Source: a virus (Duplodnaviria; Heunggongvirae; Uroviricota; Caudoviricetes). Taken from it: a stretch of DNA of 9,704 nt. Within the stretch, counting starts at the first letter, position 1. Every line of letters begins with the position of its first letter. A program made the position numbers and the translations under genes. The notes under the pieces were generated by a model. The model saw only the letters and a program-made list of their open reading frames with translations. It did no database searches and was not told where the DNA came from. The stretch lies in IMG/VR virus record IMGVR_UViG_2541047165_000024. One strand, written 5' to 3'. Shown here one piece after another: positions 8,496 through 9,704 of this stretch.

Positions 8496-9083
8496 ATGAC
8501 CACTATTACCAAAGATCGACTGCTGACAATCCAGCATTGGCGCGAAACATACGGACCGGGTAGCAACGTTGTGCTTCCAGCAGAAGAAGCGGAAGAGCTG
8601 GCACGGATTGCGCTGGCATCACTGGCAGCAGTATCGGATGAACGAGCAGCCTATGAATTATTTATGGAGAAGCGTTTCGGAGAATCTGTAGATCGCCGCA
8701 GAGCAAAAAATGGCGATAGAGATTACATGGTATGGGATATGGCGCTTGGCTGGATTATCTGGTGTCACCGCGCCGCCATGCTTCAGGCTGGAAACTTTCG
8801 GGAAAATAAGGGTTCGTCAACCAATAATTTTCGGGAAATCTCGGAAACGTCAACCAACTATCCGGTAACTCCGGATGGTTGGATAAGCTGTAGTGAGCGA
8901 ATGCCGGATGATGGTCAGCACGTAATTATTTTATGTGATGGCGCATTCGTTCTTTATGCGCAATATCGAGACGGTGAGTTTTTTGATGTAGTCCGTAATG
9001 GTGATGAATTTTTCGAAACACAGAGCCGCAATGTAACCGACTGGATGCCGCTACCAGAACCGCCGCAGGAGGTGCGCCAATGA
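8496..9083 (+). CDS. DUF551-domain phage protein
   Basis: The C-terminus carries the characteristic DUF551-type motif (…WISCSERMPDDGQHVIIL…NVTDWMPLPEPP). ATG at 8496 with AAGGTG upstream. Confidence 0.75.
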   Translation: MTTITKDRLLTIQHWRETYGPGSNVVLPAEEAEELARIALASLAAVSDERAAYELFMEKRFGESVDRRRAKNGDRDYMVWDMALGWIIWCHRAAMLQAGNFRENKGSSTNNFREISETSTNYPVTPDGWISCSERMPDDGQHVIILCDGAFVLYAQYRDGEFFDVVRNGDEFFETQSRNVTDWMPLPEPPQEVRQ

Positions 9084-9163
9084 TCTGGCCTGAAGCCTTT
9101 GCAATTACAGGCGTTGCTATAGCTATTGATTTTTTAGTATATGTTATTTGTCGGTGGGGGTAA
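9080..9163 (+). CDS. Putative 27-aa hydrophobic peptide (MIWPEAFAITGVAIAIDFLVYVICRWG)
   Basis: Not in the ORF track because it is under 60 aa. ATG at 9080 overlaps the upstream stop (ATGA) and has AGGAGG 7 nt upstream. Predicted single transmembrane helix. Confidence 0.35.
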   Translation: MIWPEAFAITGVAIAIDFLVYVICRWG

Positions 9164-9198
9164 AAACGTTCGCCGGGATTCACACCAAAGGAGGGAAT

Positions 9199-9303
9199 AT
9201 GTCGGATGATATTTCACTGGCAATGGAAGGTGCGCTGGCTGTTATTGCTGTTGTGGGCGTTTACTGCCTGGTTGTGTTTTTGATGGATCGACTAGGGAAC
9301 TGA
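9199..9303 (+). CDS. Putative 34-aa hydrophobic peptide (MSDDISLAMEGALAVIAVVGVYCLVVFLMDRLGN)
   Basis: ATG at 9199 preceded by AAGGAGGG; stop TGA at 9301-9303. Predicted single transmembrane helix. Too short for the ORF track. Confidence 0.4.
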   Translation: MSDDISLAMEGALAVIAVVGVYCLVVFLMDRLGN

Positions 9304-9311
9304 ATTCATTA

Positions 9312-9333
9312 CGATATGGGAATTCCCATATCG
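9312..9333. repeat. Perfect 22-bp palindrome CGATATGGGAATTCCCATATCG
   Basis: Read directly from the sequence. It lies 9 bp after the stop of the 34-aa peptide ORF and upstream of the hok leader. It is not followed by a T-tract. Function unknown; it may be a protein-binding site or an RNA hairpin. Confidence 0.7.
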
Positions 9334-9434
9334 GGTAAAAACGGTTTGCGGTAAAGCGAGAGTTAAGTAGAATTGCTGCGGGTGCTTGAGGCTGTCTGCC
9401 TCGGGCATGCCACCGTAAGGTAGACAGAGAAAAG

Positions 9435-9505
9435 CCCCAGTTAACATTACGCGTCCTGCAAGACGCCTAACATTAATCTGAGGCCAATTTCATGCTAGAC
9501 ACATG
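9435..9505 (-). ncRNA. sok: Predicted sok-like antisense RNA of the hok locus
   Basis: This is inference. A candidate minus-strand promoter (-35 TTGCCT at plus 9530-9535, 17-bp spacer, weak -10 TAACCT at 9507-9512) would start a transcript near 9500. That transcript would be antisense to the mok SD (GAGG about 9480-9483) and start codon (9492), as in hok/sok loci. The 3' end and terminator were not identified. Confidence 0.3.
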
Positions 9506-9704
9506 TAGGTTAGCCTCTTACGCGCCGAAAGGCAAGGAGAAGCAGGCTATGAAGCAGCAAAAGGCGATGTTAATCGCCCTGATCGTCATCTGTATCACCG
9601 TCATAGTGACGGCACTGGTAACGAGGAAAGACCTCTGCGAGGTACGAATCCGAACCGGCCAGACGGAGGTCGCTGTCTTCACAGCTTACGAACCTGAGGA
9701 GTAA
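9492..9704 (+). CDS. mok: mok-like reading frame (in-frame N-terminal extension overlapping hok)
   Basis: ATG at 9492 with GAGG 8 nt upstream. It reads in frame through hok to the same stop, consistent with the mok/hok arrangement in which mok translation is coupled to hok expression. Confidence 0.65.
   Translation: MLDTCRLASYAPKGKEKQAMKQQKAMLIALIVICITVIVTALVTRKDLCEVRIRTGQTEVAVFTAYEPEE
9549..9704 (+). CDS. hok: Hok/Gef family type I toxin (HokD/RelF-like), 51 aa
   Basis: Translation MKQQKAMLIALIVICITVIVTALVTRKDLCEVRIRTGQTEVAVFTAYEPEE is unmistakably Hok/Gef family. ATG at 9549 with AAGGAGA 8 nt upstream. The stop TAA is the last codon of the window. Confidence 0.92.
   Translation: MKQQKAMLIALIVICITVIVTALVTRKDLCEVRIRTGQTEVAVFTAYEPEE

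Follow-up and report, generated by a model that had tools for sequence, protein, structure and literature searches.

Two probable genes for single-pass membrane microproteins upstream of a prophage hok/sok locus

Two short open reading frames (ORFs) lie immediately upstream of the hok locus in a 9,704-nucleotide (nt) stretch of Caudoviricetes DNA (IMG/VR record IMGVR_UViG_2541047165_000024; the whole stretch is called the window hereafter). They are probably genuine coding microgenes from two unrelated families, whose products of 27 (ORF1) and 34 amino acids (ORF2) are single-pass membrane microproteins with a proposed role as modulators, ORF1 being presumably coupled to a phage early gene and ORF2 being linked to hok. 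A first-pass annotation of the window had described two tiny hydrophobic peptides at this place, and its structural statements hold: both ORFs exist with canonical Shine-Dalgarno (SD) sequences, the ATG of ORF1 forms an ATGA overlap (9080-9083) with the TGA stop codon of the preceding DUF551 gene, as read from the sequence, each peptide contains a single hydrophobic helix, and the hok locus follows immediately, with its promoter starting at approximately 9346 and its mRNA at approximately 9380. The elements of the two genes, as read from the sequence, are the following:

9067-9072, plus strand: SD sequence of ORF1, AGGAGG, 7 nt before the ATG
9080-9163, plus strand: ORF1, single-helix microprotein of 27 amino acids, ATG at 9080, TAA at 9161-9163, encoding MIWPEAFAITGVAIAIDFLVYVICRWG
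9188-9194, plus strand: SD sequence of ORF2, AAGGAGG (CAGGAGG at the equivalent place in subtype B, see below)
9199-9303, plus strand: ORF2 (subtype A), single-helix microprotein of 34 amino acids, ATG at 9199 (not 9200), TGA at 9301-9303, encoding MSDDISLAMEGALAVIAVVGVYCLVVFLMDRLGN

Both peptides show the attributes by which a microprotein is recognized, i.e., a length of no more than 50 residues, one transmembrane helix, and purifying selection, while evidence for translation is available for ORF2 only. The best hydrophobic 17-mer, of which there is one per peptide, reaches a mean Kyte-Doolittle value of 2.32 in ORF1 and 2.95 in ORF2, which indicates one predicted transmembrane helix in each, followed by tails of only three (RWG) and five to six residues (DRLGN), respectively. 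The placement of the SD sequences is also far from random: only 10 ATG- or GTG-initiated ORFs of at least 20 codons on both strands of the window are preceded by a GGAGG core within 15 nt, compared to 1.8 +/- 1.4 expected from shuffled sequence, and two of these 10 are ORF1 and ORF2, located inside 224 nt, so their co-occurrence should not be regarded as due to chance. The two peptides are not paralogs of each other (hhalign probability of 1.8%), and neither matches a family in Pfam or NCBIfam at E <= 1 save for a sub-threshold match to SecE. All matches in PHROGs were weak (best E = 0.01) and concerned unrelated proteins or families without an assigned function, PADLOC returned only a sub-threshold match to Cmr5, and no relatives of ORF2 were found in PDB. 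A resemblance of ORF1 to KdpF, suggested by motifs of that protein (ITGV.., LVY.., xEAF), was dismissed, as BLASTP of KdpF against ORF1 gave E = 14 and no Pfam match was obtained.

ORF1-like peptides are encoded in 92 phage records, as judged from tblastn, including the Shiga toxin (Stx) phages 933W, Sakai VT1/VT2, and BP-4795, other lambdoid phages, and one virulent phage of the Vequintavirinae. Searching IMG/VR with a degenerate DNA pattern and adding other loci, including those of GenBank phages, yielded 192 copies representing 54 distinct DNA alleles, 53 of which have the standard length of 84 nt, with the consensus M-(T/N/S/I)-W-P-E-A-F-x-x-V-G-I-A-M-A-V-A-L-V-V-Y-S-I-C-R-W-G. All 192 copies retain the (A/G)TGA overlap with the stop codon of the upstream gene (GTG is the start in two alleles, ATG elsewhere), and a GGAGG-like SD sequence is present 5-8 nt upstream in nearly all alleles, whatever gene precedes. 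In the window, the last codons of the DUF551 gene (..CAG GAG GTG..) contain the SD sequence of ORF1, and its TGA (9081-9083) overlaps the ATG; this conserved junction with an SD sequence inside the upstream coding sequence (9067-9083 in the window, 192/192 copies) is the arrangement of a coupled gene pair. From the conservation of SD sequence and start codon, we infer that ORF1 is translated.

At least five unrelated C-terminal types, several of which lack DUF551, can be distinguished among the proteins encoded upstream of ORF1, so ORF1 goes with the end of the early gene before it, whether or not that gene contains DUF551. At the other end, the homology among the loci stops at the ORF1 stop codon, which may be followed by ORF2, directly by the hok promoter (as in 933W), by a DUF4222 gene (as in BP-4795), or by assorted intrinsic terminators. 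Because the start overlap is always kept and the homology ends at the stop codon, ORF1 should be regarded as a portable module of approximately 100 nt consisting of an SD sequence and an ORF. ORF1 is also found far from any hok locus; the association with hok that the first-pass annotation had implied for both peptides thus holds well only for ORF2, whereas ORF1 follows the 3' ends of early genes. The genes preceding ORF1 (8496-9083 in the window; loci L006, L047, L152, and L205) form a mosaic family with a common N-terminus (MTTITKERLLTIK.WRETYG...LARIALASL) and interchangeable central and C-terminal modules, either DUF551 or none, their products ranging from 120 to 409 amino acids. A programmed frameshift extending the C-terminus of the DUF551 protein into ORF1 was considered and rejected, since the ATG or GTG start and the SD sequence are kept behind unrelated upstream genes; no shared slippery sequence was seen among the junctions with such genes.

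The selection pattern of ORF1 is that of a protein-coding sequence. The ratio of non-synonymous to synonymous differences (pN/pS) amounts to 0.47 in the frame of ORF1, compared to 0.94 and 2.0 in the two other frames of the plus strand, and the mean variability per codon position is approximately 0.20 at third, 0.12 at first, and 0.05 at second positions; since the allele sample behind these values is biased, redundant, and non-independent and was not corrected for phylogeny, they should be taken as supportive, not as definitive. The codons for WPEAF and RWG, which were fixed in the retrieval pattern, were excluded from these statistics. Conservation at the amino acid level, which had been suggested as a check on both peptides, is therefore apparent for ORF1 and, as shown below, for ORF2.

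ORF2 is identical to the RefSeq entry WP_001278450.1 (annotated as "hypothetical protein") and to ECs_5710 in prophage Sp6 of strain Sakai, and its exact sequence is recorded on approximately 1000 contigs. It forms the core of XECs145, a translated intergenic ORF supported by ribosome profiling (RIBOseq) in lysogens, with a predicted inner-membrane location (Hücker et al., 2017, PMC5597208). The published values in lysogeny broth (LB) are 79.1 reads per kilobase per million mapped reads (RPKM) for RNA and 346.1 RPKM for ribosome footprints, corresponding to a ribosome coverage value (RCV) of 4.35 at an ORF coverage of 0.99; in brain heart infusion (BHI) they are 121 and 150 RPKM, RCV 1.14, and coverage 0.84 (PMC5597208), all with the reservation that reads may be multi-mapped among several O157 prophage copies. 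Based on these data, ORF2 is ribosome-occupied in uninduced lysogens. Under combined cold and osmotic stress in BHI, the RNA level was 73.3 RPKM, but only 1.1 RPKM of footprints were recorded, with an ORF coverage of 0.37 (PMC5597208); the RCV thus drops from 4.35 to 0.01 at an unchanged RNA level (79 versus 73 RPKM), but a similar drop is seen for the other novel ORFs shown in that table (PMC5597208 S2 Table).

A phmmer search with the single ORF2 sequence against 1.8 billion representative proteins returned only seven near-identical sequences, and a scan of 185,579 genomes, one per species, gave five ORF2 loci, all from Escherichia or Shigella, or from short contigs of metagenome-assembled genomes. 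A tblastn search of phages revealed a divergent and unannotated sister form, subtype B, which is present in phages Tritos, mEp460, and HannyBb and is common in IMG/VR (at least 128 copies). It encodes (V)LVLKCALAIAAVMAIYCLAVVLMDRLSD, a peptide of 29-30 amino acids with a GTG start and the SD sequence CAGGAGG. Subtypes A and B share approximately 65% DNA identity over the aligned codons, while the reading frame, the start, the SD sequence, and the motif ALA-x-x-AV-x-x-(V/I)YCL-x-x-x-LM(D/E)(R/H)L are kept. The in-frame pN/pS values, which rest on small counts of approximately 13 synonymous and 19 non-synonymous differences, are 0.45-0.53 between and 0.23-0.32 within the subtypes and lie below those of the other frames; subtype A itself shows very little diversity. 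Taken over both families, the homologs of ORF1 and ORF2 appear to be largely confined to phages of Escherichia and Shigella.

ORF2 adjoins a prophage hok/sok locus in approximately 90% of the copies examined. The 5' motif of hok mRNA follows at a fixed distance, 76 nt after the ORF2 stop codon in all subtype A loci that are not truncated (74 nt in a single plasmid locus) and 42-45 nt, approximately, after subtype B ORF2 in 110 of 122 loci, with a point-variant motif in two more. Subtype A is always preceded by ORF1, and the upstream flank of subtype B varies, consisting of a gene on the minus strand, of ORF1 with a terminator, or of other sequence. Within these different flanks, a sigma-70-like element, TTGAA(T/G)-17-CATATT, occurs 37 nt before the GTG start in 106 of 120 subtype B loci with differing spacer sequences, and we read it as the putative promoter of subtype B ORF2 itself. 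It is seen, for example, in L008 (1440-1520), L009, L010, L105, and L109; in the latter two it lies downstream of the intrinsic terminator that follows ORF1. No terminator was found between subtype B ORF2 and the -35 box of hok, which starts approximately 13 nt after the ORF2 stop codon. ORF2 thus appears to be, or to descend from, an independently promoted accessory gene travelling with hok/sok.

A comparison with known systems helps to frame what such peptides may do. KdpF, AcrZ, MgtS, and CydX are small single-pass membrane proteins of E. coli with approximately 30 residues, serving as regulators or accessory subunits. ORF1 and ORF2 resemble them in size, the single hydrophobic helix, the very short tails, strong SD sequences, and genuine translation (presumed for ORF1), but share no homology with them and are phage-borne rather than chromosomal. 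Prophage morons, such as bor and lom of lambda, are accessory genes that lambdoid phages express from separate promoters, and ORF2 is like them in being translated in lysogens, in having a conserved putative promoter of its own in subtype B, and in being inserted between phage modules beside a cassette expressed in lysogens; it differs in that no terminator of its own was found and in that ORF2 of the window, located after ORF1 in the early operon, lacks an evident promoter. In the mechanism we propose, ribosomes finishing the upstream gene would re-initiate on ORF1, as suggested by the overlap, making ORF1 the last product of the phage early operon. Each hydrophobic helix would insert into the inner membrane, where both peptides may act as embedded helices binding and modulating a membrane partner in the manner of KdpF, AcrZ, or MgtS, rather than forming pores as toxins or holins do; in the case of ORF2, the neighboring Hok system would be the obvious candidate partner or target.

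Apart from the limits already attached to the selection and RIBOseq values, several points weigh against this interpretation. The minimum ORF length in the RIBOseq study of Sakai was 30 amino acids, so ORF1 was not assessed there, and the study assigned to XECs145 a longer frame of 54 codons with a non-canonical upstream start (PMC5597208); the 34-residue form with the AAGGAGG sequence is the one adopted by RefSeq and conserved across the loci compared. The charge distributions of the two ORF2 subtypes predict opposite topologies, and no convincing sigma-70 promoter was found for subtype A ORF2 in the window. Commonly, hok loci are without ORF2, as seen from 933W, and the ORF2-hok arrangement is present in only 623 of 4782 hok-matching genomes; the linkage could reflect shared ancestry and not function. 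Moreover, 10 copies of one subtype B junction type lack hok, including one in a Shigella flexneri chromosome. At this junction (L093, L228, L249, L270, L297, and others), ORF2 and its promoter stand beside chromosomal-looking genes for a LysR regulator and a major facilitator superfamily (MFS) transporter, and the site resembles the edge left behind when a prophage is deleted. Finally, some ORF1 copies are decayed, carrying a TAG at codon 3 (Trp-3) in Shigella phage POCJ13 (L003:1231-1314), a truncation ending in ..CR-stop with loss of the last two codons in approximately 10 IMG/VR loci (L032, L060, and related ones), or a 1-nt deletion (L022), which shows that ORF1 is dispensable in some prophages and can be lost.

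The first-pass annotation had suggested that the peptides may themselves be toxins or holin-like proteins. Such membrane-damaging peptides, whether similar to type I toxins or to holins and antiholins, would add to or cooperate with Hok, and several observations speak for the idea: at 27 and 34 residues, with one transmembrane helix, both fall within the size range of type I toxins (less than approximately 60 residues), both are very hydrophobic and adjoin a type I toxin of a functional class, and ORF2 is nearly always linked to hok. The relevant precedent is hokW-sokW in the related prophage Sp5, a working toxin-antitoxin system that promotes the release of Stx phage (PMC8621323). We nevertheless consider a toxin or holin role unlikely. 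Neither peptide belongs to Hok/Gef or another known toxin family according to Pfam, NCBIfam, PADLOC, hhalign, and BLASTP, and PHROGs gave no convincing match. No antitoxin RNA was detected by Rfam over either ORF, the sok model covering only 9380-9554, and promoter-like sites on the antisense strand occur at chance level and are not common to the ORF2 subtypes, a novel RNA being a matter for transcript data; one candidate (9223->9196, TTGCCA-16-CATATT) was rejected because it is at chance level and absent in subtype B. Both genes carry strong SD sequences, the start region of ORF1 folds no better than shuffled sequence, and translation of ORF2 is efficient in lysogens during exponential growth (RCV 4.35 in LB, 1.14 in BHI; PMC5597208), unlike that of a type I toxin, which is repressed in growing cells. 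As to holins, the tails of three and five to six residues do not correspond to the charged hydrophilic C-terminal domain that follows the transmembrane segment in these proteins, no holin profile of Pfam, NCBIfam, or PHROGs matched, and the same prophage contains a separate lysis cassette with a class II holin, a lysozyme, and a lysis protein, located approximately 4-6 kb downstream (L002 14058-16667). In comparison with Hok/Gef, the two peptides share the small size, the single membrane helix, and the locus, and the pairing of ORF1 with its upstream gene would, like mok-hok, also rely on overlapping reading frames for translation, but there is no sequence relationship, no antisense RNA and no fold-back mRNA architecture were found for ORF1 and ORF2, and both are shorter than the 51-residue Hok and have almost no periplasmic domain, with ORF2 being translated in growing cells. 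The absence of a toxin-family signal, an antisense RNA, or a holin architecture, the short tails, the separate lysis cassette, and the good translation of ORF2 together favor a membrane modulator, which would be the most reasonable reading of both peptides.

ORF2 might also act mainly in cis, with a promoter and translated leader reading into hok/sok and the peptide being incidental; such an element could interfere with transcription from the hok or sok promoters or supply additional RNA as a target of Sok. The conserved promoter of subtype B, the terminator-free distance of approximately 13 nt to the -35 box of hok, and the rarity of ORF2 without hok are in line with such a role. Purifying selection at the amino acid level and the C-terminal LMDRL motif, however, persist at 65% DNA identity, and ORF2 of the window has no recognizable promoter of its own and is separated from hok by a stable palindromic hairpin; conservation thus extends to the peptide but not to the cis arrangement, and we regard a predominantly cis-acting element as quite improbable. 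That the ORFs are non-functional, as chance or decaying remnants kept by linkage with footprints from pervasive translation, is the least credible possibility, given that the narrow taxonomic range, the disrupted ORF1 copies, and the low diversity of subtype A ORF2 are outweighed by the 3>1>2 order of codon-position variability in the 53 standard ORF1 alleles with mosaic breakpoints exactly at the SD sequence and the stop codon, the retention of ORF2 frame, start, SD sequence, and residue pattern across divergent subtypes together with its high RCV, and a co-occurrence of SD sequences and ORFs far above chance.

A more far-reaching version of the modulator reading, which we offer as a speculation with little claim to being right in full, regards ORF2 as a hitherto unrecognized third component of prophage hok/sok cassettes (a membrane microprotein for tuning Hok, with a promoter of its own that is active in lysogens) and ORF1 as a self-contained module of SD sequence and microgene. 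ORF2 could then act directly, by helix-helix interaction in the membrane that either protects the lysogen or times Hok-assisted lysis and phage release, or indirectly, by transcription reading into the hok/sok control region, while recombination would repeatedly graft the ORF1 module onto the 3' ends of unrelated early genes, also directly before hok promoters. A role in modifying Hok is the most interesting remaining possibility, because hokW-sokW is functional and promotes phage release (PMC8621323), and the position of ORF2 beside hok/sok therefore makes it a candidate for modifying a type I toxin system of enterohemorrhagic E. coli that could be tested at low cost.

Many tiny genes in phage genomes are overlooked by annotation, and this locus provides two clean and conserved examples whose expression logic is clear. 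ORF1 is widespread in temperate phages of E. coli and Shigella and present in at least one virulent phage, yet almost never annotated: it is missing from the RefSeq records inspected, its exact sequence is found in only a few GenBank entries (e.g., ASL59204.1), and other database calls are over-extended at the N-terminus. The statement that both peptides are unannotated and missed by standard pipelines consequently applies to ORF1, which is annotated only sporadically, but not to ORF2, which is annotated in RefSeq and already known from published translation evidence (PMC5597208). The modest novelty of this work lies in the definition of both families, in the recognition of ORF1 as a portable and presumably coupled module, and in the organization of ORF2 as a hok-linked, cassette-like unit for which subtype B has a putative promoter of its own. 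The literature found does not describe the linkage of ORF2 to hok, the subtype B relatives, or the cassette structure; searching for WP_001278450 and checking the hokW paper for upstream ORFs (PMC8621323) yielded nothing, the transcription start site data of EDL933 (PMC10469882 supplements) contain no matching sequence strings, and neither peptide matched the catalog of small ORFs from Enterobacteriaceae (PMC11188072 supplements). Even if neither peptide has a phenotype, the results would be of use for annotation, by adding ORF1 and correcting the start of ORF2.

In some records, spurious ORFs of the opposite strand are annotated in place of ORF1. The RefSeq record of POCJ13 contains the opposite-strand "hypothetical proteins" gp73 and gp72 over and beyond the ORF1 region, which look spurious. 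In the window, a minus-strand ORF of 85 codons with a GTG start (8926-9183) lies antisense to the 3' end of the DUF551 gene and ORF1; it was rejected as a real gene and is probably spurious, as homology blocks end at the boundaries of ORF1 and do not track this ORF, and selection is apparent in the plus frame. One minus frame is open in 50 of the 53 ORF1 alleles, as expected opposite hydrophobic codons.

The surroundings of the two genes contain the following elements:

8496-9083, plus strand: DUF551 gene, an EaA/Ea22-like early gene with a C-terminal DUF551 domain (Pfam, E = 4.5e-21), annotated as WP_000207955.1
9158-9168, plus strand: left copy of the 11-nt direct repeat GGGTAAAAACG (repeat search), spanning the ORF1 stop codon at the left edge of the ORF2 cassette
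9312-9333, no strand: perfect 22-bp palindrome CGATATGGGAATTCCCATATCG (palindrome search), between ORF2 and the hok promoter
9333-9343, plus strand: right copy of the direct repeat (repeat search, alignment with 933W)
9346-9373, plus strand: hok promoter (from sequence), -35 box TTGCGG (9346-9351), 16-nt spacer, -10 box TAGAAT (9368-9373)
9380-9554, plus strand: leader of hok mRNA with the sok antisense region (match to Rfam RF01794, 114.1 bits, E = 4.6e-27)
9492-9704, plus strand: mok, with the hok toxin gene nested at 9549-9704 (HOK_GEF, E = 2.4e-23; annotated as hokD)

The segment from just after the ORF1 stop codon to approximately 9343 appears to be a 175-bp cassette inserted between ORF1 and the hok promoter. 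In 933W, which lacks ORF2, ORF1 lies directly upstream of the hok promoter with a single copy of GGGTAAAAACG between them, as in 933W-type phages in general, while the window contains two copies versus 0.01 expected. The right copy resembles the sequence ..GGG TAA AAACGG.. that ends ORF1 directly upstream of hok in 933W and thus appears to be what remains of the 3' end of an ORF1 copy; the repeat pair flanking the cassette resembles a scar of short-homology recombination or of target duplication.

The palindrome CGATATGGGAATTCCCATATCG is predicted to fold into a 9-bp hairpin, which is not a canonical intrinsic terminator because a T-tract is missing on either strand. Identical copies occur in unrelated contexts (L007:2204-2225, L122:4764-4785, L172:4584, L199:4445, and L216:1516-1537), the one in L122 preceding another hok promoter. 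PPompW prophages carry the palindrome after a paa/adfO insertion by which most of ORF2 was removed, and in phage vB_EcoS-666R9 it lies inside a KilA-N-type gene for a "DNA-binding protein," where it encodes ..RDMGIPIS..; approximately 36 nt around the copy of the window are similar to the antisense strand of this gene. The palindrome could represent a recombination hotspot or a protein-binding site.

The last 805 bases of the window are 100% identical to many chromosomes of E. coli O157:H7. In strain TR01, the matching region belongs to a lambdoid, Rac-like prophage adjoining potC, with the gene order replication genes, Ea22/EaA-like genes, DUF551 gene, "hypothetical protein" of 34 amino acids, hokD, a rem-like gene, and a DUF968 gene, followed by the lysis cassette approximately 4 kb downstream; the counterpart in strain Sakai is prophage Sp6. 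In the alignment of the window with related phage loci, the -10 region of the hok promoter is invariant, and the homologous site of phage Tritos was scored as TTGGCG-17-TAGAAT in the promoter scan. The hok leader of the window (9384-9425) reads CTGTCTGCC...GGTAGACAG versus CTATCTGCC...GGCAGATAG in 933W, Tritos, and HannyBb (alignment columns ~245-295), and these paired changes are consistent with compensatory substitutions in a putative 5' stem of hok mRNA.

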